Source: a virus (taxonomy: Duplodnaviria; Heunggongvirae; Uroviricota; Caudoviricetes). From it: DNA of 35,749 nt. Each line of letters opens with the position of its first letter. Positions within the stretch are counted from its first letter, which is position 1. Location of the stretch: the IMG/VR virus record IMGVR_UViG_2541047865_000003; one strand, 5' to 3'. This document shows, piece by piece, positions 2,260 to 35,749 of the stretch. The translations under genes and the position numbers were made by a program. The notes below the pieces were generated by a model. That model was not told the DNA's origin. It saw only the letters and a program-made list of their open reading frames with translations, and did no database searches.

Positions 2260-2321
2260 CAATTCTCCTCCTCTATGTCGCGGTGGGAGGATTTTTACAG
2301 ATTTCGCTATGTGTAACCGCT

Positions 2322-2347
2322 TTTCCAAAAACCTTGGTTTGGGAGAA
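2322..2347. repeat. gix/hix-like recombination crossover site (copy next to gin)
   Basis: 26-bp site TTTCCAAAAACC-TT-GGTTTGGGAGAA, resembling the Hin hix consensus TTCTTGAAAACC-AA-GGTTTTTGATAA. Inverted relative to the 4154-4179 copy, sharing a ~21-bp identical core. Confidence 0.75.
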
Positions 2348-2800
2348 GGTTCGGCATTACCCGTTGGTGTGCCTGTCCCGTGGCCTTCCGCCACTCCGCC
2401 AACAGGCTGGCTAAAATGCAATGGTGCGGCTTTTTCTGCTGAAGAATACCCGGAACTGGCAAAGGTTTATCCGACAAATAAATTGCCTGATTTACGCGGT
2501 GAATTTATTCGTGGCTGGGATGACGGACGTGGAGTGGATGCCGGGCGACAATTATTATCTTCACAGGGGGATGCAATAAGAAATATTGAGGGATTCGCAG
2601 ATGGCGGGATCGGTATGTCTTTTGATGCAATCAGAGGGGCTTTTTACGATGCAGGAACACGATCAGCGAGAATGCCGAATAACACAACTACTATAGACAA
2701 AACCGATGACCTTGGATTCGACGCCTCTCGTGTCGTGCCAACAGCTAATGAAAACCGTCCACGTAACATCGCCTTTAATTATATTGTGAGGGCTGCATAA
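2348..2800 (+). CDS. Alternative tail-fibre C-terminal variable segment (Sv'), no own start; would fuse to the constant S N-terminus after inversion
   Basis: Frame open through the crossover site, encoding the same NLGLGE junction as the S gene, then a receptor-binding-like region (PVGVPVPWPSATPPTGWLKCNGAAFSAEEYPELAKVYP). Stop at 2798-2800 overlaps the start of the downstream assembly gene. Confidence 0.65.
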   Translation, partial: GSALPVGVPVPWPSATPPTGWLKCNGAAFSAEEYPELAKVYPTNKLPDLRGEFIRGWDDGRGVDAGRQLLSSQGDAIRNIEGFADGGIGMSFDAIRGAFYDAGTRSARMPNNTTTIDKTDDLGFDASRVVPTANENRPRNIAFNYIVRAA

Positions 2801-3393
2801 TGAAACCTGTTTTTGATGAAAATGGGCTGGCTACAGTGCCGGGTGATATGCGTTGTTTTTATTATGATGCAGTAACGTCTGAATATACGGGCTGGTCTGA
2901 TGAATATATTAATACTGGCGTAAGTATGCCCGCCTGTTCCACTGGTATTGACCCGGGCGAATACATTCCGGGGAAAGTGGCAGTATTTACGGGTAAGGGA
3001 TGGAGCCATGAAGAAGACCACCGCAATGAGACTGTTTACTCAATCGAAAATGGCGCAGCTGTTACAGTGGATTATATCGGTGCCATCAAAGACGGTTATG
3101 TCACGCTTTCACCGTTAACGCCATACGATAAATGGGATGGTGAGAAATGGGTGACAGATACTGAGGCACAGCATAGTGCCGCACTAGACGCGGCAGAAGC
3201 ACAGCGCCAGTCGCTGATTGATGCTGCAATGGCTTCCATCAGTCTGATTCAACTGAAATTACAGGCCGGGCGGAAGCTGACGCAGGCAGAAACAACCCGA
3301 CTTAACGCCGTGCTGGATTATATTGACGCGGTGACGGTAACAGATACCAGCACTGCGCCGGATGTCATCTGGCCTGAACTGCCGGAGGCGTAG
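2800..3393 (+). CDS. Tail-fibre assembly protein (U'-like, alternative orientation)
   Basis: 197 aa with the conserved C-terminal assembly-chaperone motif (…DTSTAPDVIWPELPEA). TAATG overlap with Sv'. Confidence 0.75.
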   Translation: MKPVFDENGLATVPGDMRCFYYDAVTSEYTGWSDEYINTGVSMPACSTGIDPGEYIPGKVAVFTGKGWSHEEDHRNETVYSIENGAAVTVDYIGAIKDGYVTLSPLTPYDKWDGEKWVTDTEAQHSAALDAAEAQRQSLIDAAMASISLIQLKLQAGRKLTQAETTRLNAVLDYIDAVTVTDTSTAPDVIWPELPEA

Positions 3394-3805
3394 GCCATTC
3401 AATATCTGGCGCACCGGAAGTATCGACCAGTTCCAGTGTGTCCAGATAATCCAGCCACAAATTATATTGCGCCAGTTCCTCACCTTTCAGGCGACCAATC
3501 GCCGCTTTACCAGGCCATTGCTTACTGTTTATGTATTCGTTGACCTGATTAATCAATTGCTGCTTTTCCAGTTCGGCTGCGGCAATTTGTTCCTCATGAG
3601 TTGGCGGTGGAATATCAATCCATGCAGGCATTCCGTCGATGACACCTCTGTATTTTCCTTCTGGTGCTTCCTTCATAAATTCGGCGGCAACAGTGTCGTC
3701 AATTTCGATTCCATCATCGGGCCATTCGCCGGATTCCTGATAAGCGATTTTAAGCTCCACAGGGAAAAACGCATTTTTATCGGCACTGAAAATATATTTC
3801 TGCAT
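3365..3805 (-). CDS. Tail-fibre assembly protein (U-like, currently expressed orientation)
   Basis: 146 aa, C-terminus …DTSGAPDIEWPTPP. Immediately follows the S gene; 3' end converges on and overlaps the U' 3' end. Confidence 0.75.
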   Translation of the reverse strand: MQKYIFSADKNAFFPVELKIAYQESGEWPDDGIEIDDTVAAEFMKEAPEGKYRGVIDGMPAWIDIPPPTHEEQIAAAELEKQQLINQVNEYINSKQWPGKAAIGRLKGEELAQYNLWLDYLDTLELVDTSGAPDIEWPTPPAVQAR

Positions 3806-3807
3806 TT

Positions 3808-4653
3808 CTACCGTCCTATCGAAATATAACTGAATCTGTATTGCTGTGAGATATCACTGGTTGCCACACGCCACGCTGAATTACTGATATGTTCAAAATT
3901 TACAGACAAAACCTGCGGGGCAGGATTCGACGGGTCTGACTGAACGGCATCAGACATAACACTGACTGAAACCATCGGCTGATTAGGGAATGGTATAGGG
4001 AAGTGTCCACTGATAAAGCGGGTCGTGTTTCCTGAAAAAGTGCCAAACTGAACAATATATCCACCTGGTAGCCTGAACCATCCCGAACCAGAAGCGAATG
4101 CTCCCATATCCGGTATCTGATTATCTCCTGTGCCCACATCCCTTTTCGCCGCTTCTCCCAAACCAAGGTTTTGAAGAAAGGCTGCCTTATCGGGAATATC
4201 CGCACCGTTCTGGTCTTTGGCCAGTTTCTCCGCCAGCTTGTTCAGCACTGTGGTCGCAAAGTTCGGATCGTTGCCAAGGGCATCAGCCAGCTCTTTCAGC
4301 GTATCCAGTGTTTCTGGGGCTGTACCTGCAAGCGCAGCAATCGCCCTCGCCACAAATTCTGTCGTCACCAGCTTTTTGCTGTTGTCATTAGCTGCAGGCG
4401 TGGGGGCTGTTGGCGTACCCGTGAATGTTGGGCTGGCCTTCGTCGCATACTGGGTATGCGGGTCGGCCGCTGCGATGTGTTTCGCGAGATCTGAACCGCC
4501 TTTTTCAACCTGCTGTTTCAGGTATGAAGTACGGCTGGCCAGCTGTTTAGCCTGACGGTTAGAAATTCCATCAGGCCCACCCAGTACGGGGTCGGAGACC
4601 TCAATCTGGTAGATGCCGTCTTCCCACTGCGGGGTTTCGGGTAGATTTGCCAT
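3808..4653 (-). CDS. Tail-fibre protein (constant N-terminal part 4180..4653 plus variable part inside the invertible segment)
   Basis: 281 aa with a typical tail-fibre N-terminus (MANLPETPQWEDGIYQIE…) and the hix-encoded NLGLGE junction. Crossover site lies inside the coding sequence at 4154-4179. Confidence 0.85.
   Translation of the reverse strand: MANLPETPQWEDGIYQIEVSDPVLGGPDGISNRQAKQLASRTSYLKQQVEKGGSDLAKHIAAADPHTQYATKASPTFTGTPTAPTPAANDNSKKLVTTEFVARAIAALAGTAPETLDTLKELADALGNDPNFATTVLNKLAEKLAKDQNGADIPDKAAFLQNLGLGEAAKRDVGTGDNQIPDMGAFASGSGWFRLPGGYIVQFGTFSGNTTRFISGHFPIPFPNQPMVSVSVMSDAVQSDPSNPAPQVLSVNFEHISNSAWRVATSDISQQYRFSYISIGR
4154..4179. repeat. gix/hix-like recombination crossover site (copy inside the tail-fibre gene)
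   Basis: TTCTCCCAAACC-AA-GGTTTTGAAGAA. Inverted partner of 2322-2347. Confidence 0.75.
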
Positions 4654-6330: not shown

Positions 6331-6668
6331 AGCAGCTCCTGAGTCCGGGTCTGTCCTTCAGAGCCTTTCCAGCTCACCCGGAGCGTAAGATGTTCGCCGT
6401 CGACGGCGGGTTTAACCGACATCAGCTGGCAGCGAGGCTCCCAGCGGCGGATGGCATCGACGGATTCGCGCACCACATGCGGGATAGCCCGGTCGATGGG
6501 CCAGTCGATATAAAGATGCAGATTGCTGCCGAACTCCGGGCGATGCGGGTCGCTGCCGCGAGGAGTTCGCAGGATGATTTGAATGGCCTGCCAGATATCA
6601 TCCAGCCCCCGGACGATTTCGCCGGGGGCCTGCAGTGCCGGTTGCCAGAATACTGAGGTTGTTTTCAT
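6321..6668 (-). CDS. Baseplate wedge protein (GPW/gp25-like)
   Basis: 115 aa, size and position typical of gpW/gp25 between spike and J genes. Confidence 0.7.
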   Translation of the reverse strand: MKTTSVFWQPALQAPGEIVRGLDDIWQAIQIILRTPRGSDPHRPEFGSNLHLYIDWPIDRAIPHVVRESVDAIRRWEPRCQLMSVKPAVDGEHLTLRVSWKGSEGQTRTQELLWR

Positions 6669-6722
6669 GGGGGCAGTATTGCCCCTGTGCGGGAACGCCG
6701 ATATTAAAGGCGTTTAAGAAGG

Positions 6723-12148: not shown

Positions 12149-12463
12149 CTAAACCACCTCGCCAGCAGCCCCTGCGCCTGCATCAGCGTTTTCGTCGCTC
12201 TTGCCCAGCCCAGTGACTTGCTGAAATCGTTTCTGCAGCTCCATGTAGTCGGCAAGATCCATATTATCGAGGTCTTCCGGAAGAATACCGGTGCTACGGG
12301 CAATCAGCGGCTCGTCCCAGTCAGCCGGGTCTTTACTGATTTTGCGCACCTGCTTCAGGTCTTTGACCGTCAGGCGTTTCAGTTCAACCTGCTCAACTCT
12401 GGTGCCAGCAGCGGTGGTGAAGGGGTAAGACAGCTTAAAAGTATCGGATTGGGTTTGTGACAT
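12149..12463 (-). CDS. Tail assembly chaperone (gpE-like); overlapping frame 12046..12303 is the likely frameshift-extended form (E+E'-like)
   Basis: 104 aa upstream of the tape measure. A second frame overlapping its 3' end stays open to 12046 and encodes an E'-like tail (…DTDDLEMWLEQAEVQIRSEFGD). RBS CAGGAG before the ATG. Confidence 0.6.
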   Translation of the reverse strand: MSQTQSDTFKLSYPFTTAAGTRVEQVELKRLTVKDLKQVRKISKDPADWDEPLIARSTGILPEDLDNMDLADYMELQKRFQQVTGLGKSDENADAGAGAAGEVV

Positions 12464-12527
12464 GATCGTGCTCCTGTGTAAGTTCAGAGCAGTATGTCTG
12501 GTGGTGGGACTGGCAGATATTAAAGGG

Positions 12528-12554
12528 GATTAAGAAGAAAGGGGCCGAAGCCCC
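12528..12554 (-). terminator. Rho-independent terminator inside the tail gene cluster
   Basis: Minus-strand GGGGC-TTCG-GCCCC hairpin (at ~12541-12554) followed by TTTCTTCTT, just downstream of the 93-aa ORF stop. Confidence 0.55.
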
Positions 12555-12561
12555 TGTGATA

Positions 12562-18378: not shown

Positions 18379-18592
18379 TTTGCTGTCCCGCGTTACGTTG
18401 TCGGGGACAGTCTGTGGAAAAAGCGTCAGCAGCGCTTTTAATCTGCTTTAGAAAAAATCGGGGGTATCAGTACGGGGAATGTCACGCTGCGGGCGAATAG
18501 TGGTGCAAAGCGGGGGCTGTAAAGCCTTTATAAAGGTAATACAGCCCCTCAGCGGCTGGCAATGATAAATCACCCGCCTGCAGAGACAAAAC

Positions 18593-19051
18593 TCAGCGAC
18601 GGGCCGCTGCTTCAAGATGGCGGACAATCGTATCGAGGATAGGGACAACCACTTCAGGCTGCAGCTCACCGTCCCCCGTCAGCGGCAGGAACGGACGGGC
18701 AGGAAGTTCAACGGACTCATTACGCCCCGTTTTACCCCCAAACTGGTGAATCGGCCCATAAACGACATTAGTGCCAACCGCTGCCTGCCGGTCGTCATGG
18801 TCGGTTGATACCGACCCCATCAGACGCCCGGTATCCTGCAGCGTTTGCCCGTCGCGCTCCTGCGCTGCCAGCGAGGGAGTCCACCCCGGACGCCCCTCAT
18901 CGAGAAAGTTAAACTGCGTTTCCGCCAGCAGGGTTCCGGCGATTTTGCGCATCGCGGGTTCCAGGTCTGTGGCAGCAAGATCCAGCGCACGGAGGCTCCG
19001 GCGCAGGGATTCATCGTTAATGGTGACATTGACCAGGTTATCGGAAGCCAT
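18593..19051 (-). CDS. Virion morphogenesis protein (Mu G-like)
   Basis: Start at MASDNLVNVTIND… with a GAGG RBS, 2 nt after the F stop. The upstream extension in the track overlaps F and is not used. Confidence 0.65.
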   Translation of the reverse strand: MASDNLVNVTINDESLRRSLRALDLAATDLEPAMRKIAGTLLAETQFNFLDEGRPGWTPSLAAQERDGQTLQDTGRLMGSVSTDHDDRQAAVGTNVVYGPIHQFGGKTGRNESVELPARPFLPLTGDGELQPEVVVPILDTIVRHLEAAARR

Positions 19052-23728: not shown

Positions 23729-24053
23729 GGTGACCTCCTGTATGACGATACTGCTGTACCACTTCCAGTTTGTTGTAGAGTGCGTCCAGCTTGGCCTCGA
23801 TGACCGTCTGCCCACGGATGTAATCCTCGCGGCGGACGTAGTTCAGCGGTAAATCCGCCTTAAACCGCATAAATTCTTTTTCCAGCTCGCCCCAGTTGGA
23901 AGCGGACTGTTGCAGCGACTGCTCAAGAGAGGCGAACCGCGCCGCCTGACGCTCCTCCGCTTTACTGAACAGCCACTTGGCCATACCGCCGACAAAGCTC
24001 ATGAAGGTGATGAGAAAGCCCACCACCGTCCAGAATTCAACCTGCAACGTCAT
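23721..24053 (-). CDS. Small membrane protein (1 TM, ~110 aa)
   Basis: Start MTLQVEFWTVVGFLITFMSFVGG… in ATGA overlap with the Rz-like stop. Confidence 0.45.
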   Translation of the reverse strand: MTLQVEFWTVVGFLITFMSFVGGMAKWLFSKAEERQAARFASLEQSLQQSASNWGELEKEFMRFKADLPLNYVRREDYIRGQTVIEAKLDALYNKLEVVQQYRHTGGHHG

Positions 24054-24703
24054 TTCTGTAATCCTTCCCGTTCGTCCAGCAGCCCGTTTATCTGGCTGCG
24101 CCAGATGCGGCACTGCTTCGCGTTGTCGATGATGTTGGCGAGGACATCACGCTGGGAGACGCCTGAGTTGCGTAGCCAGGCGTCAGCGGCTTCAGGTTGC
24201 CCGGACGCTGCGCCAGTGCCGGTGCCAGCGGCGGCAGTTGCGTCTGAATGACCGGTGTCGACGGATGCGTTGTCATATCCGAGCGCGGCGTTGTACTGGC
24301 GCACGAAACCGCGAGTAAACACGCACTCAATGGGATGGCTCTTACCTTTTTCATCAATCCAGCGCTGTGTGACATCGTTAATTTGCCCCTGTAGTTGTTT
24401 GTTCTGGCTCTCCAGTTGAGCAATCTGCTCAAGGTAACTGGCTTCAGCCTGCTGCCCGGCGGCTACCTGTTCCTGATACCGTTTCGCCCAGGCCCGCAAC
24501 GCAGCGTTCTCAAGCGTTGCCTGCTCCGTTTTGTACGTGTCGAATGCTGACTGCAACTCACTGACCGCCTTATCGCCGTCGCGCGTGGCGTTTTCATGCC
24601 CGCTTTTGTAGCCCAGGTAATAAAGCCCAATCAGAAAAGCATTTATGACCACCGCCAGCAGCAGACTGCGCCACGGCAGATTTTTTAGCAGGTTAGTCCA
24701 CAC
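24050..24703 (-). CDS. i-spanin (Rz-like)
   Basis: N-terminal TM (WRSLLLAVVINAFLIGLYYLGY), coiled-coil middle region, contains the nested Rz1 frame. Putative GTG start with a GGGGAGG RBS; start uncertain. Confidence 0.6.
   Translation of the reverse strand: MWTNLLKNLPWRSLLLAVVINAFLIGLYYLGYKSGHENATRDGDKAVSELQSAFDTYKTEQATLENAALRAWAKRYQEQVAAGQQAEASYLEQIAQLESQNKQLQGQINDVTQRWIDEKGKSHPIECVFTRGFVRQYNAALGYDNASVDTGHSDATAAAGTGTGAASGQPEAADAWLRNSGVSQRDVLANIIDNAKQCRIWRSQINGLLDEREGLQK
24088..24354 (-). CDS. o-spanin (Rz1-like lipoprotein) nested in the +1 frame of the i-spanin gene
   Basis: MKKVRAIPLSACLLAVSC… signal peptide with lipobox, then a Pro-rich short mature region; entirely inside the Rz-like gene. 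Confidence 0.6.
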   Translation of the reverse strand: MKKVRAIPLSACLLAVSCASTTPRSDMTTHPSTPVIQTQLPPLAPALAQRPGNLKPLTPGYATQASPSVMSSPTSSTTRSSAASGAAR

Positions 24704-25780: not shown

Positions 25781-26027
25781 GAGCGTCTCCTTGTGTAGTG
25801 GAGACAGCATCACAAATGGTCGGGGAAAGGGATTTTAAACAGCGTTAATAGTGAGGATGCAGACGTGAACCGCATGATGGCTTTGAAAGAACGACCAGCC
25901 CGGTGCGGTAACACCAGGCTGGTCATCAACCCACAGGTATGCACTGTGAGCCGACCAGGGTTCAGTCAGTCTCGCGAGACCAGACTAGCCTGCCATATTT
26001 TCATTGATTGCAAAAGGCTTACGGATA

Positions 26028-26798
26028 ATGAAAGAACAATCTTTACCCATCGTCCCATGGATTGGCGGTAAACGTCGTCTGGCGAAGCATATTTTACCAT
26101 TGTTTCCGGCCCATACCTGCTATGTGGAGCCGTTCTGCGGGGCAGCTGCGCTCTATTTCCTAAAGACTCCCAGCAAGACCGAAGTCATTAACGATATCAA
26201 CGGGGAACTGGTGAACCTCTATCGGGTGGTCAAGCATCATCTGGAAGAATTTATTCGCCAGTTCAAATGGGCGCTGGTCAGCCGTCAGATTTACAAATGG
26301 TTGCAGGATACGCCGGAAGAAACGCTCACCGACATTCAGCGGGCGGCCCGGTTCTACTACCTGCAGAAACAGGCATTTGGCGGCAAGGTCGCCGATCACA
26401 CATTCGGTACCTCTACAACCAGTGCGCCGCGCTTCAATTTGCTGCGTATTGAGGAAGAACTGTCGATGGCACACCTGCGCCTGTCGAGAACGCTGATAGA
26501 GCATCTGGACTGGCACCAGTGCATAGAGCGATATGATCGCCCGCATACGCTGTTCTACTGTGACCCACCGTACTGGGGAACGGAAGGCTATGGTGTGGAG
26601 TTCGGGCTGGAAAACTATGATCACATGGCAGATTTAGCGCGAAGGATCAAAGGGAAGATGATTATATCAGTGAACGATATCCCGGAAATGCGGCAGGTAT
26701 TCAACGGTCTGAACATGCAGTCGGTTGATATCAGCTACAACCTTAAGGTAACAGGCAAACCCAGCCCGAAGAAAGAGCTGGTAATTTGTAATTTTTGA
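26028..26798 (+). CDS. DNA adenine methyltransferase (Dam-like, N6-adenine)
   Basis: SAM-binding motif (FCGAAALYF) and catalytic DPPY motif. Start chosen at MKEQSLPIVPWIGGK…; the track ORF begins 24 nt upstream. Confidence 0.75.
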   Translation: MKEQSLPIVPWIGGKRRLAKHILPLFPAHTCYVEPFCGAAALYFLKTPSKTEVINDINGELVNLYRVVKHHLEEFIRQFKWALVSRQIYKWLQDTPEETLTDIQRAARFYYLQKQAFGGKVADHTFGTSTTSAPRFNLLRIEEELSMAHLRLSRTLIEHLDWHQCIERYDRPHTLFYCDPPYWGTEGYGVEFGLENYDHMADLARRIKGKMIISVNDIPEMRQVFNGLNMQSVDISYNLKVTGKPSPKKELVICNF

Positions 26799-27414: not shown

Positions 27415-27825
27415 TTAACCCGTATTTTTTAATCTTTCGAACGCTGCGGACAGCTCCTTAAGCTGTTTTTCCATATCAATCATTCGCTGTTTTTCCTCAG
27501 CGCCTCGCAGCAACTCTTTTCGCACCTCTGGCTCCAGTTGGTTGAGCAGCTCCAATAACTTCAGATCAGACTGGTTGAAATGCTGCTCCTGATTAGCTGG
27601 CTGTGCTTTCTCTACCCCAACAGCTTCCCCTTTACCAGTAAGTAGCCAATCTATTGATATGTTCAAATGGGTGCTTAGCGCAACAAGAGCCTCTGCATTA
27701 GGTTCTCTCTCTCCACGCAGATAGTTTTGAAGTGAGCGATATGGAATTTTTGACAAGTCTGACAATGCCTTAATTGTCAGACCCTTAGCATCCATCGCTT
27801 CGCGCAATCTCTCTTTTATACTCAT
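27415..27825 (-). CDS. Prophage repressor (XRE-family HTH)
   Basis: Start at MSIKERLREAMDAKGLTIKALSDLSKIPYRSLQNYLRGER… (HTH), C-terminal coiled-coil-like region. Divergent from the early operon across an ~88-bp promoter/operator region. Confidence 0.7.
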   Translation of the reverse strand: MSIKERLREAMDAKGLTIKALSDLSKIPYRSLQNYLRGEREPNAEALVALSTHLNISIDWLLTGKGEAVGVEKAQPANQEQHFNQSDLKLLELLNQLEPEVRKELLRGAEEKQRMIDMEKQLKELSAAFERLKNTG

Positions 27826-27841
27826 TTGAACATATCTCAAT

Positions 27842-27869
27842 TTGACATACCCGTTTGGGTGCGTACAAT
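27842..27869 (+). promoter_or_regulatory. Candidate sigma70 early promoter (TTGACA-16-TACAAT) with overlapping operator dyad
   Basis: TTGACA at ~27842-27847 and TACAAT at ~27864-27869, upstream of the Ner-like gene. Inverted repeat TTGGGT(N11)ACCCAA straddles the -10; a further ACCCAA lies ~20 bp downstream. Confidence 0.5.
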
Positions 27870-27913
27870 AGACCCAATAGAGTACATCATAACCCAACAG
27901 GAACACGGTGCAT

Positions 27914-28138
27914 ATGAACAAACAACAAGTTCGGGCACGGCTGGTTGAAAGAGGCAGTAGCTTGCGCCAGTTCGCGCTTAACGCGGGCTATGAGCCACGA
28001 ACAGTCACCCAGGCTGTCAGCCGCTGGGCAGGCAAAAGCGAACTTCCACGCGGTCGTTTGACTTATCGGATTTTGCGAGACCTTTCGGTCGCAATAGGCA
28101 AAGAAGTTACCCCCGGCATCCTCAAGGAGGCGTCATGA
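27914..28138 (+). CDS. Ner-like DNA-binding early regulator
   Basis: …LRQFALNAGYEPRTVTQAVSRWAGKSE… resembles the Mu Ner core; first gene of the early operon, divergent from the repressor. Confidence 0.65.
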   Translation: MNKQQVRARLVERGSSLRQFALNAGYEPRTVTQAVSRWAGKSELPRGRLTYRILRDLSVAIGKEVTPGILKEAS

Positions 28139-28440
28139 GTAAACCAAATACATCAAGCTCAGGTACCCGTATTTTGCGTGTCCTTAAGGCTTTACGCGGT
28201 CACGCTCTGAACGGTGTTTCTAACGGCGAGCTGGCGTCAGCTCTGGGCGAGTCCCCGGCGAATATCAATCGGGCGCTCAATACCCTTATCGAAGAAGGAC
28301 TGGCCCTGAAACTGGATAACGGGCGTTTTGCCCCAGGAGTCCAGCTCTTACAAATCGCCATGGCGCACAGTACCGAAATGGCGCGGGCGCAGGATCGTAT
28401 CAATGAAATTAACCAGCGTGTTATGGCTGGTAGTCGCTAA
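28135..28440 (+). CDS. Winged-helix/HTH DNA-binding protein (IclR-N-like), 101 aa
   Basis: …VSNGELASALGESPANINRALNTLIEEGLA… HTH-like segment; ATGA overlap with the Ner-like stop. Confidence 0.5.
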   Translation: MSKPNTSSSGTRILRVLKALRGHALNGVSNGELASALGESPANINRALNTLIEEGLALKLDNGRFAPGVQLLQIAMAHSTEMARAQDRINEINQRVMAGSR

Positions 28441-28449
28441 GGAGTTGAA

Positions 28450-29358
28450 ATGGGACGCACAAAATCACAACCAGTTGAACTAGTGGAAGATGCACCGCTG
28501 ACCGATGGTCTCAGTGTCAGTCTTAATGCTATGTCCGAACATCGCCTCGAAATCATGCAGCAGTTTGGTGATGGCCTGCCGTATGAACGTGATCGTATTG
28601 TCCATGAAACACGTTTTTATATGGCTCAGAGTGCTGAAGCCATGCTGGAGGCGGGTAAACGACTGGTAATTCTCAAAGAAAATGAACCACATGGTGACTT
28701 CATCGACATCGTTGAGTCTCAGTTGTCCCTGTCCAAACGTACCGCGCAGGTGATGATGCAAGCATCCCTCAAATATTTGTCTCCCAAGCTTGAACCAAAA
28801 GCGCAAGCGCTTGCGCTTTTGGGTAAAACAAAGCTGTTTGAGTTGATGACGGAAGATGACGAAGACCTCGTCGAATTAGCCGATGGCGGCACGATTGCTG
28901 GTATGAGCCTCGATGATATTGATCGCATGACAAGCCGCGAACTGAAAGCGGCCCTACGCGAAGCGCGTGAAACCAACGCAGCACAACAGCGCGTGCTTGC
29001 CGACAAAAACGAAAAAATCGACTCGCTCTCCACAAAACTGGAGAAGAAATCCCGTATCCAGCCGCCCAAGCCTGACGAAGAGGTGAAGAAGCTGCGTGCG
29101 GAAGTTACAGCGTTAGCGGTTGAGGCGGAATCTGCCATCGCCGTTCGACTGTCCAGCGCCTTTGAGACCCTGTGCGCATACTGTGCTGAAAATATGATTG
29201 ATACCCCCAGAGACTTTATGGCCGGTCTGGTCTGCCAGTTGGAAAGCACCGCGCGTAGCCTGCGCTCCACATTTGACCTGCCGGACGAGCCGACAGGCAA
29301 CGCCGCCCCTTCATGGCTGACTGACCCGACGCCAGAGATTAACGGGCAGGAGGCATAA
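28450..29358 (+). CDS. Hypothetical early protein (302 aa)
   Basis: Strong RBS (AAGGAG); acidic/coiled-coil-rich; sits between the regulators and the transposase, where Mu has no gene. Confidence 0.5.
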   Translation: MGRTKSQPVELVEDAPLTDGLSVSLNAMSEHRLEIMQQFGDGLPYERDRIVHETRFYMAQSAEAMLEAGKRLVILKENEPHGDFIDIVESQLSLSKRTAQVMMQASLKYLSPKLEPKAQALALLGKTKLFELMTEDDEDLVELADGGTIAGMSLDDIDRMTSRELKAALREARETNAAQQRVLADKNEKIDSLSTKLEKKSRIQPPKPDEEVKKLRAEVTALAVEAESAIAVRLSSAFETLCAYCAENMIDTPRDFMAGLVCQLESTARSLRSTFDLPDEPTGNAAPSWLTDPTPEINGQEA

Positions 29359-29361
29359 CCC

Positions 29362-31131
29362 ATGAGTGCCGCCCTGACTGAACGACTGGTTTATGTTGCC
29401 CGCGCGGCACGTGACGCGGGGCATGGTAAGCGTGGTGCGATATATGATGCCGCCTGCGCCGAACTGGGCATTTCCCGCGCCACCCTGCTGCGCAAGCTGA
29501 AGGAGGTATCAGTGACTGACAAACGTAAAAAACGCGCCGATGCCGGGCGCAGTGCCCTGAGCCGCGACGAAGCCGCGCTGATATCTGCCACGCTGCGCGA
29601 GGCCACCCGTAAGAACGGTAAGCGCCTGTATTCCATCGCGGATGCGGTGGAGACCCTGCGGTCAAACGGCTTTATCACTGCTGGCAGAACGGACGAGGCC
29701 ACAGGCGAGTTTTTCCCGCTGTCCGAGGACACCATCAGCCGCGCCCTGCGGAACTATGGTCTGCACCCGGAACAGCTTGACGCACCGGCCCCGTCGTCCG
29801 AGATGGCCAGCCTGCATCCCAATCACGTCTGGGAGATTGATGCCTCACTTTGTACGCTTTACTACCTGAGCAACGGCCATAAAGGGTTGCAGGTGATGGA
29901 CAGCTCGAAGTTCTACAAGAACAAGCCTGCCAACATCGCCCGCATCGCCAGTGACCGCGTGTGGAGTTACGAGATTACCGACCATACCAGCGGCTGGATT
30001 TACGTTGAGTACGTGATGGGTGCGGAATCTGGTGAGAACCTCTGTTCTGTGCTTATCAACGCCATGCAGGAGCGCGGCGGCGCGGACGTGCTGCACGGCG
30101 TGCCGAAAATACTCTACCTTGATCCCGGTTCGGCGAACACCGCTGGCATGACGAAAAACATGTGCCGCTCGCTGGGCATCAATCTGATAGCGCACAAGCC
30201 GCATAACGCCCGCGCCACCGGGCAGGTGGAAAAGGCCCGTGACATTATCGAACGTAAACTGGAGCCGGGTCTCAAATTCCAGCCGGTTCATAGCCTGGAC
30301 GAACTGAACGCGCTGGCGGTGAAATGGCGCAGCCACTTTAACGCCACGGCGGTCCACAGCCGCCACGGTAAAACCCGCACGGATATCTGGCTGAAGATTA
30401 CTGCTGACCAGCTGAAAAAAGCGCCATCCGTTGAGGTTTGCCGCGAACTGGCGGTGGCCGCACCGGAACTCCGTAAGGTCACACCAAAACTGCGCGTCTC
30501 GTTCCGGGGCAATGAGTTTGACGTTTCGACGGTACCGGGCGTACTGGTCGGCGAAAAACTGATGATTACCCGTAACCCGTGGCGCAGCGATGTGGCGCAG
30601 GTGGTGCTGACCGGTGAGGACGGTCACGAGACGTTCTTCCTGGTCGAAGAGGTCAGAAAGAACGAGTTCGGCTTTGCCGAAAGCGCGGCGGTATTTGGCG
30701 AAAACTACAAAGCCCTGCCGGAGACCCCGGCGCAGACGGCGGCAAAAGAAATCGAAGAGCTGGTTACGGGCACCGATAACGCCACCGATGCAGCTGCTGC
30801 ACGCAAGGCGAAGGCGCTGCCGTTCGGCGGGCGACTTGACCCGTACAAACATATCGACGACACCACGCTTCCGGCCTATATGCCGAAGCGCGGTCAGGCT
30901 TCAGACGTGCGCGGGCCGCGTATTGAGCAGCGTCCGCTGACCCATGTGGAGGCGGCGAAAGCCCTGCGCGAGAAGTTTGGCGCTAACGGCCATATCTGGA
31001 CGCCGGAACATTACCGCCAGTTAACGGCGCAGTACCCGGATGGCGTACCTGAAGCCGCGCTGGATGAGGTGATGGTTACCCTGACCACTCCGGCCCGCAA
31101 CAGCGTTATCAGCATCGTTAACGGTAACTGA
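29362..31131 (+). CDS. DDE transposase (Mu A-like)
   Basis: 589 aa with an N-terminal DNA-binding region and candidate DDE residues (WEIDAS, LYLDPGS, HNARATGQVEKAR); followed by the AAA+ ATPase partner; RBS GGAGG. Confidence 0.8.
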   Translation: MSAALTERLVYVARAARDAGHGKRGAIYDAACAELGISRATLLRKLKEVSVTDKRKKRADAGRSALSRDEAALISATLREATRKNGKRLYSIADAVETLRSNGFITAGRTDEATGEFFPLSEDTISRALRNYGLHPEQLDAPAPSSEMASLHPNHVWEIDASLCTLYYLSNGHKGLQVMDSSKFYKNKPANIARIASDRVWSYEITDHTSGWIYVEYVMGAESGENLCSVLINAMQERGGADVLHGVPKILYLDPGSANTAGMTKNMCRSLGINLIAHKPHNARATGQVEKARDIIERKLEPGLKFQPVHSLDELNALAVKWRSHFNATAVHSRHGKTRTDIWLKITADQLKKAPSVEVCRELAVAAPELRKVTPKLRVSFRGNEFDVSTVPGVLVGEKLMITRNPWRSDVAQVVLTGEDGHETFFLVEEVRKNEFGFAESAAVFGENYKALPETPAQTAAKEIEELVTGTDNATDAAAARKAKALPFGGRLDPYKHIDDTTLPAYMPKRGQASDVRGPRIEQRPLTHVEAAKALREKFGANGHIWTPEHYRQLTAQYPDGVPEAALDEVMVTLTTPARNSVISIVNGN

Positions 31132-31141
31132 GGAGGAAGGC

Positions 31142-32308
31142 ATGCTGGTACTGAAGCAACAACTGAAAGAGGCCCGCATCCCGCAGGCGGTGGTGGCAAG
31201 AGCCGTCGCCGTTTCCGAGGCCACGCTGGCCCAGATTGTGAACCATAACGAGTGGCCACGCACCAGCCCCGAAGAGGTACGCCAGCGTCTGGCGTTGTAT
31301 CTGGAAAGTAAGGGGATTGATACAGCGAAAAGTTTTGATGCTGCACAGGGCGCTGTCACGCCCCGTACAGCGGGTACTACCGATAAAACCAACCTCAGTG
31401 AGGAAGAGAACATGTTACTCAAAAAGCAGGTGTTATTTCCAGCAACCAAAAAAGCGTTTGGCCTTTTCCGTGATCCGTTCGCCGATGAAGCCATGCAGGG
31501 CGCGGACGATGTGTTCACCACGCCGGATATCCGCTACGTGCGTGAGGCGCTGTTCCAGACCGCCCGCCATGGTGGCTTTCTGGCGGTTATCGGCGAGTCC
31601 GGTGCGGGTAAATCCACGCTGCGCCGCGACCTGATTGAACGCGTCAACCGCGAGAACGCGCCGGTGATTGTAATTGAGCCATACATCATCGCCATGGAAG
31701 ACAACGACGTGAAGGGCAAAACCCTGAAGGCGGCAGCTATCGCCGAGGCCATCATCAGCACCATCGCGCCGCTGGAGAGTATCAAACGCAGCCAGGACGC
31801 CCGCTTCCGCCAGTTGCACCGCGTCCTGAAGGACAGCAGTCAGGCGGGTTTCAGCCACGTTCTGGTGATTGAGGAGGCCCACAGCCTTCCCATTCCGACG
31901 CTGAAGCACCTTAAACGCTTCTTCGAACTGGAGTCCGGCTTCAAAAAACTGCTGTCCATCGTGCTGATTGGCCAGCCTGAACTGGCGGACAAACTGTCCG
32001 AACGCAACATGGAAGTCCGTGAGGTCGTCCAGCGCTGCGAGGTGGTTGAATTGCTGCCGCTGGACAACAGCCTCGAAGAGTTTCTGACGTTCAAACTGCA
32101 ACGTGCCGGTAAGCAGCTGGCCGACATCATGGACGCCAGCGCAGTGGAAGCCATCCGCGCCCGTCTGAGCAATCTGGGTAGTAGCCGTAAAAGCATGGTC
32201 AGCCTGCTGTATCCGCTGGCCGTCAGTAACCTGGTGATAGCCGCCATGAATCTGGCTGCTGAAATCGGGGTTCCGCAGGTCAACGCCGACGTCGTCAAAG
32301 GAGTTTAA
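31142..32308 (+). CDS. Transposition ATPase / target-DNA activator (Mu B-like AAA+)
   Basis: Walker A GESGAGKST, Walker B VLVIEEAH, N-terminal HTH-like region; immediately downstream of the transposase. Confidence 0.8.
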   Translation: MLVLKQQLKEARIPQAVVARAVAVSEATLAQIVNHNEWPRTSPEEVRQRLALYLESKGIDTAKSFDAAQGAVTPRTAGTTDKTNLSEEENMLLKKQVLFPATKKAFGLFRDPFADEAMQGADDVFTTPDIRYVREALFQTARHGGFLAVIGESGAGKSTLRRDLIERVNRENAPVIVIEPYIIAMEDNDVKGKTLKAAAIAEAIISTIAPLESIKRSQDARFRQLHRVLKDSSQAGFSHVLVIEEAHSLPIPTLKHLKRFFELESGFKKLLSIVLIGQPELADKLSERNMEVREVVQRCEVVELLPLDNSLEEFLTFKLQRAGKQLADIMDASAVEAIRARLSNLGSSRKSMVSLLYPLAVSNLVIAAMNLAAEIGVPQVNADVVKGV

Positions 32309-32310
32309 TC

Positions 32311-32580
32311 ATGAAATCCATCGCCGATATCAACCAGCAGATGAACAAGGTGCAGTCCGCCATTATGGCGCTCAACGCCATGAACACTACCGTGCAGAGC
32401 GTCATGATTGCTGGCAGTAAGCCGGTTATCCGTATCGCCCGCAACGGGCACTGTGCCCGCCTGCTGGAGCAGGGCAAAGCGAGTTATACCCATGTTGGCC
32501 ATGACGGCTCAGGGCGCTTCCGTCAGGGCGTCTTTGAGTTGCATGGCTGCCGTATTACCTGGTCAGAGTCGTTACATTAA
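32311..32580 (+). CDS. Hypothetical early protein (89 aa)
   Basis: AGGAG RBS; starts 3 nt after the B stop; several His/Cys residues. Confidence 0.45.
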   Translation: MKSIADINQQMNKVQSAIMALNAMNTTVQSVMIAGSKPVIRIARNGHCARLLEQGKASYTHVGHDGSGRFRQGVFELHGCRITWSESLH

Positions 32581-32597
32581 CCATAAGGTGAACAGAG

Positions 32598-33209
32598 ATG
32601 AGCGAAGTAAATAAAGAAAACTACATGAAAGACCGCAAGGGGCGTCTGGTGCCGGTTGACCAGGTGTCTGACTATGACCTTGCGATGGACTCTTTCGTTA
32701 AAGAACAGGTTGTCGCCGCGAAGGTTAAACGCGATGAACTCAGTGACTTCAAGCGTCGTGCCTTTGACGAGTGCTATGCCTGGCTTGACCTTGTGGCCGA
32801 GAAGTACGGCAGAACGCGTGGCGGTGCCAAAGGCAACGTGACCTTCAGCAGCTTCGACGGTGCTCAGCAGATCACCATCCGCGTGCAGGAAACCCTGACC
32901 TTCGGGCCAGAGCTGCAGATTGCCAAAGACCTGATAGACGAGTGCGTCACCGAGTGGTCGGAAGGCGCGAACGCCAACCTGCGGGCCATCATCAGCGATG
33001 CTTTTCAGGTGGACAAAGAGGGCCAGCTTAATACCGGACGTATTCTTTCCCTGCGCCGCGTCAAGATTCAGGACGAGCGCTGGAACCGGGCAATGGAGGC
33101 CATATCGGAATCACTGCAGGTGGCAATGTCCAAAACCTATATTAATTTCCGGGAGAAAGATAAACACGGGAAGCTAATTAATATTCCGTTAGATATCGCT
33201 GCCATTTAA
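32598..33209 (+). CDS. Hypothetical early protein (203 aa; possibly the DUF3164 family of Mu-like prophages)
   Basis: Occupies the semi-essential early region; family assignment is from memory only. Confidence 0.45.
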   Translation: MSEVNKENYMKDRKGRLVPVDQVSDYDLAMDSFVKEQVVAAKVKRDELSDFKRRAFDECYAWLDLVAEKYGRTRGGAKGNVTFSSFDGAQQITIRVQETLTFGPELQIAKDLIDECVTEWSEGANANLRAIISDAFQVDKEGQLNTGRILSLRRVKIQDERWNRAMEAISESLQVAMSKTYINFREKDKHGKLINIPLDIAAI

Positions 33210-33287
33210 TTTTAATTCAATTTCTTTTTATTTCGGCGTCAGTGCCGTGGGCTTCTGCACGCCGAAAACAGCATTAAGGAATAAATC

Positions 33288-33476
33288 ATGTCCATCAAAT
33301 GTATCAACTGCCAGAAAGGTATCACCACCCTGAAGTTCAGCGACGCCAGCGTCATTTCCTCCGGTAAGTACCGCGTACCAGCCGTCCTCATCACGCTGGT
33401 ATGCCCACACTGTAGCCAGCATTACTACACCGAAGTCCCGGCCATGGAATTCATCCCTTGTGAGGCAAAGAAATGA
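33288..33476 (+). CDS. Com-like zinc-ribbon protein (62 aa)
   Basis: Two Cys pairs (CINC…CPHC). Pattern and length resemble Mu Com as recalled from memory (MKSIRCKNC…CPRCKRH). AAGGAA RBS; 3' end overlaps the next gene (ATGA). Confidence 0.5.
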   Translation: MSIKCINCQKGITTLKFSDASVISSGKYRVPAVLITLVCPHCSQHYYTEVPAMEFIPCEAKK

Positions 33477-33745
33477 TTACTGCAAAAGAAGCCGAAAAAC
33501 GGACCCGTGAAATTGTCGCGGAATATATCAGTGAATGTGGTTGTGAAAATCCCAACCATATCCGGCAGGTATTAATCAAATTAATCAGCATGGCTTCACA
33601 CGCCATCGTAGCAACAAATGGCCTAGATCAGGCTATTTACGTTCTTCACGCCACCAGTGACCACCTGAGAAAAATGCCGCCGCTGTACGAGCTGGAAATT
33701 ACTGAGGACGGCCACGTGAAAGTTATCGGCGTATCACGCCATTGA
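33473..33745 (+). CDS. Hypothetical protein (90 aa), translationally coupled to the Com-like gene
   Basis: ATGA overlap with the Com-like ORF; no recognisable motif. Confidence 0.45.
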   Translation: MITAKEAEKRTREIVAEYISECGCENPNHIRQVLIKLISMASHAIVATNGLDQAIYVLHATSDHLRKMPPLYELEITEDGHVKVIGVSRH

Positions 33746-33760
33746 TTTGGGGAAGATAAG

Positions 33761-34057
33761 ATGAAAGGCATGAAATTATATAACCGTTCGACGATCTACA
33801 ATCTGGCCCTCAAAACCTTCGGCCCAGAAGCTCAGGCTCTGAAGCTGATGGAAGAAGCTGCCGAACTGGCCGCTGCTGCTGCCCGCAACATGAACGGACT
33901 GGGCAATGAAGTTGATCTGGCAGGCGAACTGGCTGACGTTGAAATCATGATTGAACAGTTCCGCCTAAACGGGATGGGCCTGATGATTGATTTTCATAAG
34001 CAGAAAAAGCTGGAACGCCTTGCCGAACGCCTGGGGGTGACTTATGCCGCAGAATAA
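33761..34057 (+). CDS. MazG-like nucleotide pyrophosphohydrolase-domain protein (98 aa)
   Basis: EExxEL (MEEAAELAAAA) and downstream ELADVE acidic motif typical of the MazG/HisE-like fold; size matches stand-alone phage MazG-like proteins. Confidence 0.5.
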   Translation: MKGMKLYNRSTIYNLALKTFGPEAQALKLMEEAAELAAAAARNMNGLGNEVDLAGELADVEIMIEQFRLNGMGLMIDFHKQKKLERLAERLGVTYAAE

Positions 34058-34733
34058 TGAAAAGCTGCTGGAGAAGTTAAAAAAGCTACTTGCGCTGGCT
34101 AAATCCGATAACCCCCATGAAGCGGCACTGGCACTGCAACGCGCCCAGAAACTGATGCAGGCCTATAACATCACCCAGGCTGACCTCGCACTCAGTGATA
34201 TTGATGAAAGCGTCAGTAACTACTGGGCTGCAGGTAGCGTTAATCCGCCGCGTTATATGCTGGGTCTGCTGGATATTATCCAGGTGGCATTTGGCGTTAA
34301 GTCTATTATTCACTCCGGCTTTAAACCCGGCGTTGGCTTTTACGGTAATAAAGACCGGGTTGAACTGGCCTCATATACATGGGAGGTACTGGCCAGACAG
34401 TTAATCATGGCCCGTAAAAACTATATTCGACAGCAGAATAAAAGAATCAAAAACACGACCAAGACCAGCCGTGGTGACAAATTTGCCGAAGGGTGGGTTC
34501 TGGCCGTGCGTAGCGAGGTTCATTTATTTGCTATGTCCCGCGAAGAACGGGAGCTGGCAAACCTCTGGCTTGAACAAAAATACCCTGATTCAGGAACAAC
34601 CTCTGGCCGCAAAGCCGGTAAATCCCGTGACGCGGACATGTCCCGCCACATCGGTTACAGAGAGGGAGAAAACGTCCGTCTACATCAGCCTGTCAGCGGG
34701 CAGGAACAGCGGAAGCTGGGGAGTGGCTTATGA
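34044..34733 (+). CDS. Hypothetical early protein (229 aa)
   Basis: Helical N-terminus (LLEKLKKLLALAKSDNPHEAALALQRAQKLM) and basic C-terminal region; GGGGGTGA RBS. Confidence 0.45.
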   Translation: MPQNNEKLLEKLKKLLALAKSDNPHEAALALQRAQKLMQAYNITQADLALSDIDESVSNYWAAGSVNPPRYMLGLLDIIQVAFGVKSIIHSGFKPGVGFYGNKDRVELASYTWEVLARQLIMARKNYIRQQNKRIKNTTKTSRGDKFAEGWVLAVRSEVHLFAMSREERELANLWLEQKYPDSGTTSGRKAGKSRDADMSRHIGYREGENVRLHQPVSGQEQRKLGSGL

Positions 34734-34945
34734 TGGCTGAATCAATTGTATGTGCCTTGTTCTGGTATGGTCTCGTGGGGTGGTGTACTGCTGAACTGCA
34801 CCGCCGTTCAGGGTTTTACTCACGTTACAGCGGTACCGGACACTGGATCAGTTGGGCCGTTATGTTCCTGTGCTGGCCTGTCGCGCTTCCTTTATATGTC
34901 GACTATATCGGTGGCGCAGGTAAAAGGAGTGGCAATGATGACTAA
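34730..34945 (+). CDS. Small hydrophobic protein (71 aa, two predicted TM helices)
   Basis: ATGATG overlap with the upstream stop; Trp-rich hydrophobic segments. Confidence 0.4.
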   Translation: MMAESIVCALFWYGLVGWCTAELHRRSGFYSRYSGTGHWISWAVMFLCWPVALPLYVDYIGGAGKRSGNDD

Positions 34946-35363
34946 GCAGCGTCTTATTCAACTCATTCATATTGCCCGCAGCGACCTCCAGATGGATGAG
35001 GACACCTACCGCCAGATGCTACAGGGGCTGACCGGCAAAGCCTCAACCAAAGGGATGGATACCCCACAGCTAAACCGCGTGCTGGAATCAATGAAAAAGA
35101 AAGGCTTTCGCATTAAGCCTGCCGGGAAAGCCAAGTCCGGCTTACCGCTCGACAGCCATCCGCAGTCAAAGAAAATCCGTGCGCTATGGCTTGAAATGGC
35201 TGCCGCAGGCATCGTCCGTGACAGTTCAGAGCAGGCGCTGGCGCTGTGGGTTAAACGGGAAACCGGCATCAGCGCGTTACGCTGGCTCAGCAATGAGCAG
35301 GCAAGTAGCGTGATTGAGAAACTGAAGAAGTGGCAGCGCAGAGCTGCGGGAGTGAAGCAATGA
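34935..35363 (+). CDS. GemA-like regulatory protein (Mu gp16 family)
   Basis: Start MMTKQRLIQLIHIARSDLQMDEDTYRQML…, preceded by an AAAGGAG RBS; located immediately before the Mor-like gene as in Mu. Confidence 0.55.
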   Translation: MMTKQRLIQLIHIARSDLQMDEDTYRQMLQGLTGKASTKGMDTPQLNRVLESMKKKGFRIKPAGKAKSGLPLDSHPQSKKIRALWLEMAAAGIVRDSSEQALALWVKRETGISALRWLSNEQASSVIEKLKKWQRRAAGVKQ

Positions 35364-35749
35364 GCGACCTGAATCAGTTTCGTAGTAAAGGGCCGGAACT
35401 GTTGGTGGAACTGGCACAGCATACCTCTGAGACTGTCCGCGAGATTATTGATATCGAACCCGCAGTTGCCGACCAGATTGGTCAGGCCGTCGCGAACCGC
35501 ATGATGCAGGTCTGGGGTGGGCAAAACGTCTATTTTCCGATGGGCATGGTCTGGAAGGTCAGCCAGCGCGACCGGGAAATTTTCCTGGAGTTTGACGGGC
35601 GCAACCATCACGAACTGGCCCGCAAATTTGGTGTTTCACTACAGTGGGTTTACAGCGTGGTGAAGCGGGTCAGAAAAGAAGAACTGGATCGGATGCAGGG
35701 CAAACTGTTTGATGGCGAACCTGATGCCGATACAGGGAAAAAGGAGTAA
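35360..35749 (+). CDS. Mor/C-family transcription activator (middle operon regulator-like)
   Basis: 129 aa from MSDLNQFRSKG…; C-terminal HTH (HELARKFGVSLQWVYSVVKRVRK) and central GGQNVYFP motif parallel Mu Mor (GGGQVYIP … NTVYKAIRR, from memory); ATGA overlap with the GemA-like stop. Confidence 0.65.
   Translation: MSDLNQFRSKGPELLVELAQHTSETVREIIDIEPAVADQIGQAVANRMMQVWGGQNVYFPMGMVWKVSQRDREIFLEFDGRNHHELARKFGVSLQWVYSVVKRVRKEELDRMQGKLFDGEPDADTGKKE

Follow-up and report, generated by a model that had tools for sequence, protein, structure and literature searches.

The closest described relatives of the promoters considered here are those of phage Mu, which depend on the activators Mor and C. The middle promoter Pm has a -10 and no -35, and Mor footprints a 16-bp dyad there that runs from -51 to -36 with its centre at -43.5 (PMC4287176). 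The site of C is a 16-bp imperfect dyad with the same centre (PMC2582627). Mor and C each use a beta-strand and a helix-turn-helix (HTH) to contact two adjacent major grooves; on RNA polymerase they touch the beta flap, sigma region 4 and the C-terminal domain of the alpha subunit (alpha-CTD) (bioRxiv 10.1101/2025.05.02.651988). As read from the annotated sequence AF083977, the Mor-dependent Pm is GTAA-AGCCGG-TTAA, 23 nt and TATCCT. The C-dependent promoters are Pmom (TTAT-GCCCCA-ATAA, 24 nt, TAAGAT), Plys (CCATAA, 24 nt, TAGACT-G), PI (GCATAA, 24 nt, CAAACT-G) and PP (CCATAA, 24 nt, TATCCT). Here we describe four putative late promoters of this general type in a stretch of 35,749 nt of Caudoviricetes DNA, IMG/VR record IMGVR_UViG_2541047865_000003, which we call the window.

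We believe, with a probability of about 0.8, that four gaps in the late arm of the window hold Mor-type, activator-dependent late promoters that are marked by a dyad. All four carry one signature, a YTAA-N6-TTAA dyad followed after 23 nt by a NANNCT hexamer and then a G, and the sites precede the genes for the holin, the I protease, the tail assembly chaperone and the baseplate protein W. The last of these lies in a 54-nt gap between baseplate genes V and W. The pattern YTAA-N6-TTAA-N24-ANNCTG has 4 matches in the window against 0.03 expected from shuffles, and all of them are intergenic and on the minus strand. The dyad is enriched by itself as well, with 4 copies of TTAA-N6-TTAA against 0.26 expected. 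With a class-balanced weight matrix the four sites score 35-42 bits and the next best match scores 20.6 bits. We derived the signature from the holin, I and chaperone sites, and the W site was not used in defining it.

For numbering we set the -10 hexamer as -12..-7 and assumed a +1 that is 7-8 nt past the hexamer, which puts the dyad centres at about -43. The distance from dyad to hexamer is 23 nt at all four sites, as in Mu Pm. The hexamers (GATGCT, CAGACT, CATACT and AATACT) are kept in relatives, and none of them has a usable -35. At the -35 positions we found AATCCC, AAGCGC, TATCTG and TATCGG, and a scan for the sigma-70 -35/-10 consensus flagged none of the four sites.

An earlier, sequence-only reading of the window had likened late promoters here to those of Mu that need the C activator. 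The general type stands, since the sites have a weak -10, no -35 and a putative activator site that overlaps the -35 region, while the motif that it chose was the wrong one. The likeness is also closer to the Mor-dependent middle promoter than to the C-dependent late promoters. Window and Pm match in their half-sites, in the GC-rich N6 core and in the 23-nt spacing, whereas the C-dependent promoters have TTAT/ATAA half-sites with 24 nt where the window has TTAA/TTAA with 23 nt. What the window has in common with the C-dependent promoters is a dyad near -43.5, the lack of a -35, C-rich spacers and a -10 of the kind NANACT-G (TAGACTG and CAAACTG in Mu, CAGACTG and CATACTG in the window). The positions in the gene map are also similar. 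Like Plys and PI, two of the window promoters precede the lysis and I (head) operons, and the place of PP is taken by two tail-side promoters (chaperone and W). The slot of the Pmom-driven DNA-modification operon is occupied by dam, with only a tentative divergent promoter.

Judged by its gene content, the window is a BcepMu-like transposable prophage: its early arm encodes a DDE transposase, a MuB-like protein, GemA and Mor and diverges from a late arm of the Mu/P2 type. We based the layout on the annotation of a 96%-identical record, on the BcepMu gene table and on Pfam and PHROG matches. Between 24000 and 28500 the window shows 100% identity to Escherichia phage Phi06_2974 B, 96% to that record (the prophage-like Klebsiella phage KP12) and 85% to phage PhiKM. 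A Mor/C-class activator, which the sequence-only reading had presupposed, is indeed encoded. The product of 35330-35749 matches Pfam Mor with an E of 1.3e-42 and the PHROG "late transcriptional activator", and its gene closes the early operon after gemA, as the activator gene does in Mu. In alignments it is 31% identical to Mu Mor and 28% to Mu C, and it retains GG..Y.P.G and GRN..EL. Its recognition helix differs from that of Mu C at two contact residues, Q113 being W and Q116 being S (contact residues from bioRxiv 10.1101/2025.05.02.651988). Searches of the window by tblastn with this protein, Mu Mor, Mu C and BcepMu Mor found no second Mor/C homologue. Pm in Mu drives a short middle operon that ends in C, whereas the Pm-type sites of the window directly precede the four late operons. 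Mu thus has three tiers (Mor, C, late), and since the window has no second C-like activator its cascade would have two.

We aligned the regions upstream of holin, I and the chaperone from 20 genome loci with a relative of the I protease (69-100% identity), taken with 10-kb flanks from Pantoea, Mixta, Erwinia, Brenneria, Pectobacterium and other Enterobacterales. The comparison of relatives also covered 80 viral contigs, and 104 loci were fetched in all. Each alignment shows two fixed blocks, the dyad and the hexamer, around a segment that changes freely. The anchored sequences all read NTAA-N6-TTAA, 23 nt, NANNCT, with a right half-site of TGAA in one, and the spacing is 24 nt in only two sequence types, one of which is a holin sequence. 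At the holin promoter the TAA/TTAA half-sites are invariant in 18 distinct relative sequences and the hexamer is NATG(C/A)T in all relatives, while the spacer between them appears in forms such as CCGTATCCCGCCAC, CCCCGCGGTGCTAT and CCCTGCGTGCCGCG. The I hexamer is CAGACT, CAAACT, CACACT or GACACT at exactly 23 nt in 13 of 13 distinct sequences. The chaperone hexamer is CATACT in 17 of 18 and CATAAT in the other, with 23 nt throughout; one chaperone dyad (L013) begins with GTAA and is hence outside our search pattern. The W site persists in 46 distinct relatives from IMG/VR, some of them contigs in which another gene lies upstream, and the most distant of these (60% J identity) has TTAAAGGGCTTTAA-N23-CACACT-G. 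In total, about 80 distinct relative sequences retain the signature while the C-tract spacer varies. Across the 104 loci, matches to the signature occur only at the expected positions and on the expected strand; the 34.9-kb KP12 record, for example, has exactly 4.

BcepMu itself has 63% GC and a Mor that is 53% identical to the window protein. Its gene order is that of the window, with early and late arms that diverge from a central control region, and it has the same promoter layout in the same four gaps (Table 1). Its half-sites are more degenerate than those of the window, with CTAA/GTAA at the holin and I promoters, TTAG at W and a right half of CTGA at the chaperone promoter. The dyad of its I promoter is one base off the dyad of Mu Pm. 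The two Mor proteins have in common the beta-strand WGGQNxYFPMG and the recognition helix GVSLQWxY; the segments that are expected to contact DNA are conserved together with the half-sites. In the literature that we searched, which did not cover the original BcepMu paper, we found no description of late promoters for BcepMu-like phages, and a search for RdgB binding sites in the same literature found nothing relevant.

Table 1. Features of the window and the corresponding BcepMu promoters. Starts and functions of promoter parts are predictions.
Feature	Coordinates	Strand	Sequence and remarks
Holin (lysis-operon) dyad	25835..25848	-	TTAACGCTGTTTAA; putative Mor site, centre about -42.5
Holin spacer	25812..25834	-	AATCCCTTTCCCCGACCATTTGT; 23 nt, contains CCCCGAC, C-rich (9 C against 2 G), variable
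Holin -10	25806..25811	-	GATGCT, then G at 25805; predicted start ~25799, predicted 5' untranslated region 25781-25799
Holin hairpin	25781..25811	-	GUCUCC...GGAGAC; joins -10/discriminator to holin Shine-Dalgarno; -11.9 kcal/mol, z -3.5
I-protease (head-operon) dyad	18438..18451	-	CTAAAGCAGATTAA; TTAATGGGGGTTAA at the same place in Pectobacterium-group relatives
I spacer		-	AAGCGCTGCTGACGCTTTTTCCA; 23 nt
I -10	18409..18414	-	CAGACT, then G at 18408; predicted start ~18402
I hairpin	18383..18410	-	3' arm over gene I Shine-Dalgarno; -13.1 kcal/mol, z -2.8
Tail-chaperone/tape-measure dyad	12520..12533	-	TTAATCCCCTTTAA; core AATCCCCTTT
Chaperone spacer		-	TATCTGCCAGTCCCACCACCAGA; 23 nt, includes GTCCCACC (12510..12503)
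Chaperone -10	12491..12496	-	CATACT, then G; predicted start ~12484
Chaperone hairpin	12463-12496	-	weak, z -0.9
W dyad	6704..6717	-	TTAAACGCCTTTAA; whole site 6674-6717, top matrix score (42 bits)
W spacer		-	TATCGGCGTTCCCGCACAGGGGC, then AATACT-G
W -10 and start codon	6666..6680	-	AATACT (6680..6675), then GCCCCC, then ATG of W (6668..6666)
G-I gap long hairpin	18513..18548	-	apex palindrome CCTTTATAAAGG (18536..18525); -23.9 kcal/mol, z -3.5
Intrinsic terminator	12540..12555	-	GGGGCUUCGGCCCC, then U-run; after sheath-tube-X genes, immediately upstream of chaperone promoter; z -3.25
17-bp hairpin	25890..25927	-	followed by GUUCUUUC; between dam and lysis promoter; -31 kcal/mol, z -7.7
-10-like hexamer	25873..25878	+	CATGAT; 24 nt from lysis dyad, points to dam; putative function
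Late arm		-	holin (ATG 25780), SLT lysin, terminase, portal, F, G, I protease, capsid, sheath, tube, chaperone, tape measure, baseplate, tail fibres
dam	26028-26798	+	D12-class Dam methylase gene
Repressor-like HTH gene	27415-27921	-	
Early operon	27908 to 35749	+	DDE transposase, MuB-like protein, GemA; Mor/C-family activator gene last
Mor/C-family activator gene	35330-35749	+	end of early operon, after gemA
BcepMu holin promoter			CTAAAGCCGATTAA, 23 nt, CAAGAT
BcepMu I promoter			GTAAAGCCGATTAA, 23 nt, GATGAT
BcepMu chaperone promoter			TTAATCTGCGCTGA, 23 nt, GACAAT; directly after a terminator
BcepMu W promoter			TTAGCCGGCTTTAA, 23 nt, CAACAT-GGCCGC-ATG

We propose that transcription of the early operon would end in the production of its single Mor/C-family protein, which would then bind the four dyads and recruit sigma-70 polymerase to promoters that have only a -10. 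This would be the recruitment known from Mor at Mu Pm and from C at Plys, PI, PP and Pmom. The first unit would comprise lysis, terminase, portal, F and G. The second would run from protease/scaffold through capsid, connector, sheath and tube to the intrinsic terminator, the third would hold the tail chaperone, tape measure, hub and spike, and the fourth, from a start at ~6668, the baseplate wedge and fibres. The hairpin in the G-I gap and the terminator before the chaperone promoter would partly separate the units. The lineage thus appears to run from early genes through Mor to late genes, by way of Pm-type sites. None of this should surprise a Mu specialist, as the promoters belong to the known Mor/C type. 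It does provide a usable late-promoter signature for BcepMu-like prophages, which are widespread in Enterobacterales and Burkholderia, and with its help one can delimit late operons and spot accessory genes, dam among them, that are possibly under late control.

Several points weigh against this proposal. We built the pattern on three sites, which leaves the fourth and the relatives as its only independent tests, and the relatives are homologous, so their conservation counts lineages and not independent events. The -10 hexamers are weak matches (GATGCT, CAGACT) that we assigned by spacing and by analogy to Mu, and the mapping of the Pm coordinates is our own reading of the Mu sequence. The binding of Mor to the dyads, the exact start sites and the late timing are things that we infer. 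A differential RNA-seq study of Burkholderia cenocepacia J2315, which is lysogenic for BcepMu, lists no start at a predicted late promoter (PMC4603805 Table S3); it is the one such data set that we found for a relative, and as the cells were from uninduced biofilms this absence is uninformative. Finally, the dyads could be bound by some other DNA-binding protein, of phage or host origin.

An addition to Mor-type promoters, compatible with them, is that C- or pyrimidine-rich tracts on the non-template strand are a real and degenerate auxiliary feature of the Mor/C type, located in the spacer (about -32..-18) and the discriminator (-5..-1). Such tracts might modulate the shape of the DNA, its contacts with alpha-CTD or with sigma region 4, or the stability of the open complex. 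Per 23-mer, 0.23 occurrences of CCC are expected; three of the four window spacers and all four spacers of Mu late promoters contain it (P ~0.04 for the window), and the excess of C over G is 7 in both the holin and the chaperone spacer (P ~0.02 each). The W promoter and Mu PI both have TTCCCGCAC at -27..-19, and bases just downstream of the dyad matter for activation by Mor and C (PMC2582627). Of the 20 bases at -5..-1 in the four window promoters, 19 are pyrimidines (P ~1e-5, post hoc). However, all of these tests were post hoc and made on few, phylogenetically related sequences. The tract is shifted or absent in many relatives, such as the Pectobacterium-group holin spacers and several W spacers, the BcepMu discriminators are G-rich and not C-rich, and a pyrimidine-rich discriminator may merely be the complement of the Shine-Dalgarno sequence within a hairpin. 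We regard an auxiliary feature as possible, though we would sooner bet against it, and we take the residual C-richness to be a weak, soft preference or a by-product of hairpins that pair with the Shine-Dalgarno sequence, rather than a recognition element.

Another explanation is that the dyads are bound by a different regulator, such as the phage winged-helix protein encoded at 28135-28440 or a host factor, or that the promoters are constitutive and the dyads have some other role. The early operon does encode other HTH proteins. However, Mu Pm, whose Mor site has been footprinted (PMC4287176), has matching half-sites, a GC-rich N6 core like that of the window and the same 23-nt distance to the -10, and the lack of a -35 argues for dependence on an activator. 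The joint retention of the dyad and the DNA-contact segments of Mor in the window and BcepMu also speaks for Mor. We consider a different regulator or constitutive promoters improbable.

The sequence-only reading had taken a C-tract motif, CCCCGAC and related strings, as the possible mark of three late promoters. The 7-mer is present where that reading placed it, at 25825..25819 (-) upstream of the holin ATG (25780) and at 18406..18400 (-) upstream of the I-protease ATG (18378). The related strings upstream of the chaperone ATG (12463) are there too, AATCCCCTTT at 12531..12522 and GTCCCACC at 12510..12503 (both -). A T-rich run, which was said to follow the C-tract, is no consistent feature. 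The enrichment check against shuffled sequence that had been suggested gave no excess: counting both strands, the window has 5 copies of CCCCGAC and dinucleotide-preserving shuffles have 4.93 +/- 2.14, with at least 5 copies in 54 of 100 shuffles. Three of the five copies (9059+, 15379+ and 20582-) are within coding sequence, and a similar frequency in coding regions is what the sequence-only reading itself had named as grounds for giving up the motif. Two random 80-nt stretches of the late strand have some 7-mer in common in 36% of draws.

The copies also do not occupy equivalent positions. The holin copy is at about -26..-20, in the variable spacer, and the I copy is at about -4..+3, in the discriminator and start region, where it is the 5' arm of the hairpin that reaches the gene I Shine-Dalgarno sequence; the I spacer has no C-run at all. 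At the chaperone promoter AATCCCCTTT is the N6 core of the dyad, and at the holin promoter AATCCCTTT is directly 3' of the dyad. The only roughly equivalent pair is CCCCGACC at holin and GTCCCACC at the chaperone promoter, both in the spacer zone at about -26..-19. Only close relatives keep CCCCGAC, in 7 of 20 holin-promoter spacers (3 of the 7 shifted by one base) and in 9 of 21 I-promoter sequences, yet the relatives without it still retain the dyad and the -10 hexamer. Although the 7-mer is upstream of two late operons and in the C-dependent promoters of Mu the ATAA half-site is immediately followed by CCCC (ATAACCCC in PI and PP, ATAATCCC in Plys) where the window has WAKC, it is highly improbable that the C-tract is a recognition motif of the late activator shared by three promoters. 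The shared 7-mer is a chance match and no functional unit. The three gaps do carry predicted Mor-type late promoters, with a fourth unit at W that had been missed, and most of the conserved holin dyad (25835-25848) is beyond the range that the sequence-only reading had marked, which ends at 25840. As a point of method, a short k-mer common to two sites in GC-rich DNA led to the right gaps for the wrong reason.

At three of the predicted promoters (holin, I and chaperone) the bases directly past the -10, GTCTCC, GTCCCC and GCTCTG respectively, are complementary to the downstream Shine-Dalgarno sequence. The predicted hairpins have the 5' arms GTCTCC (holin) and CTGTCCCC (I). In relatives, the 7 pairs of the holin hairpin show only changes that are compatible with G-U pairing. 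Among the 8 pairs of the I hairpin, one shows a CG/GC swap (6:5) and several show G-U changes. The 5' arms precede the predicted +1, so sequestration would affect read-through RNA only. The insertion sequence IS10 is protected from outside transcription by a hairpin at the ribosome-binding region, which is known as fold-back inhibition. Purely as an analogy, RNA that precedes the predicted +1 may pair with the ribosome-binding region at three of the four window promoters.

The W promoter is arranged differently. The W protein matches GPW_gp25, and the ATG of its gene is 6 nt past the -10 and has no Shine-Dalgarno sequence; the same is true in 46 relatives and in BcepMu (see also 30810-30825 and 18849-18864 of locus L104). 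The predicted start at ~6668 is the A of this ATG, so we predict a leaderless mRNA. The W hexamer is flanked by GGGGC/GCCCC (folding z -3.0) and sits in the loop of an inverted repeat, which is often the case for the -10 in BcepMu too (three of its four promoters).

A more speculative idea is that the late promoters are insulated units. In this scheme the -10-to-+1 segment would pair with the ribosome-binding site at holin and I, the W -10 would be in the loop of an inverted repeat, only transcripts initiated with the help of Mor would be translatable, and a bidirectional lysis dyad would put dam under late control, like mom. We think that this scheme as a whole is unlikely to be right. If it were true, Mor-initiated transcripts would have short leaders at holin and I and no leader at W, and read-through RNA would be folded shut.

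The tentative divergent promoter towards dam is a -10-like hexamer on the other side of the lysis-promoter dyad, whose half-sites are palindromic. In 18 of 19 relatives CA(T/G)NNT occurs at 23-24 nt from this dyad despite a variable spacer. The dyad could be part of a bidirectional Mor promoter that places the DNA-modification gene dam under late control, like mom in Mu. We also considered a tandem minus-strand promoter at CATCATG (25878..25872) and rejected it, because it has no dyad upstream and the divergent plus-strand reading fits the fixed dyad distance better. KP12-type relatives (L001 ~24040-24340; L008-L010) have extra DNA between the lysis promoter and dam. There, on the dam-side strand and just past the divergent hexamer, an open reading frame begins that has a good ribosome-binding site; the KP12 record annotates an opposite-strand gene instead (KP12_281). 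The 17-bp hairpin in the gap from dam to the lysis promoter resembles a terminator and would shield the lysis genes from leftward read-through of the repressor-side genes (27921 to 26846).

The terminator upstream of the chaperone promoter has a stem of GGAGGG...CCCTCC in the Pectobacterium group, and BcepMu has GGCCCGCTTCGGCGGGCC followed by T6. The palindrome CCTTTATAAAGG at the apex of the G-I hairpin is identical in 21 of 21 enterobacterial sequences, and BcepMu retains TTTATAAAGGCTTTAC. This hairpin may be a terminator, a protein-binding site or both. As in the window, the G-I gap of Mu has a hairpin/terminator before PI. The palindrome is near the middle of the genome, and Mu has a strong gyrase site as well as a predicted terminator in the same gap; we found no sequence similarity between the palindrome and the gyrase cut site of Mu. 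A scan of the whole window with Rfam found no family at threshold, so the hairpins described here are not known RNA families. Just past gene G there is a sigma-70 match, TTGTCT-16-TATCAT at 18589-18562, which is kept in close relatives only.

A few observations concern the left end of the window. The open reading frame 1-1602 (+), which begins at base 1, codes for 533 residues that belong to an outer-membrane fimbrial usher (PapC_N and Usher), and the match ends at position 320 of the 549-position Usher profile. The prophage end appears to be near 1602-1678, with a host usher gene as the apparent site of insertion. A fifth TTAA-N6-TTAA, TTAAAGTGCGTTAA at 2099-2112 (-), is inside the invertase gene 1678-2259 (-), with 24 nt to GAAACTG and a score of 20.6 bits. 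It encodes conserved recombinase residues (LKCVN...VWKLD) and is probably a chance match. The gene for this Gin/Hin-type serine invertase adjoins an invertible tail-fibre segment at 2249-3829, in which alternative genes for the fibre tip (Collar domain) and for tail-fibre assembly are on opposite strands, comparable to the G segment of Mu.

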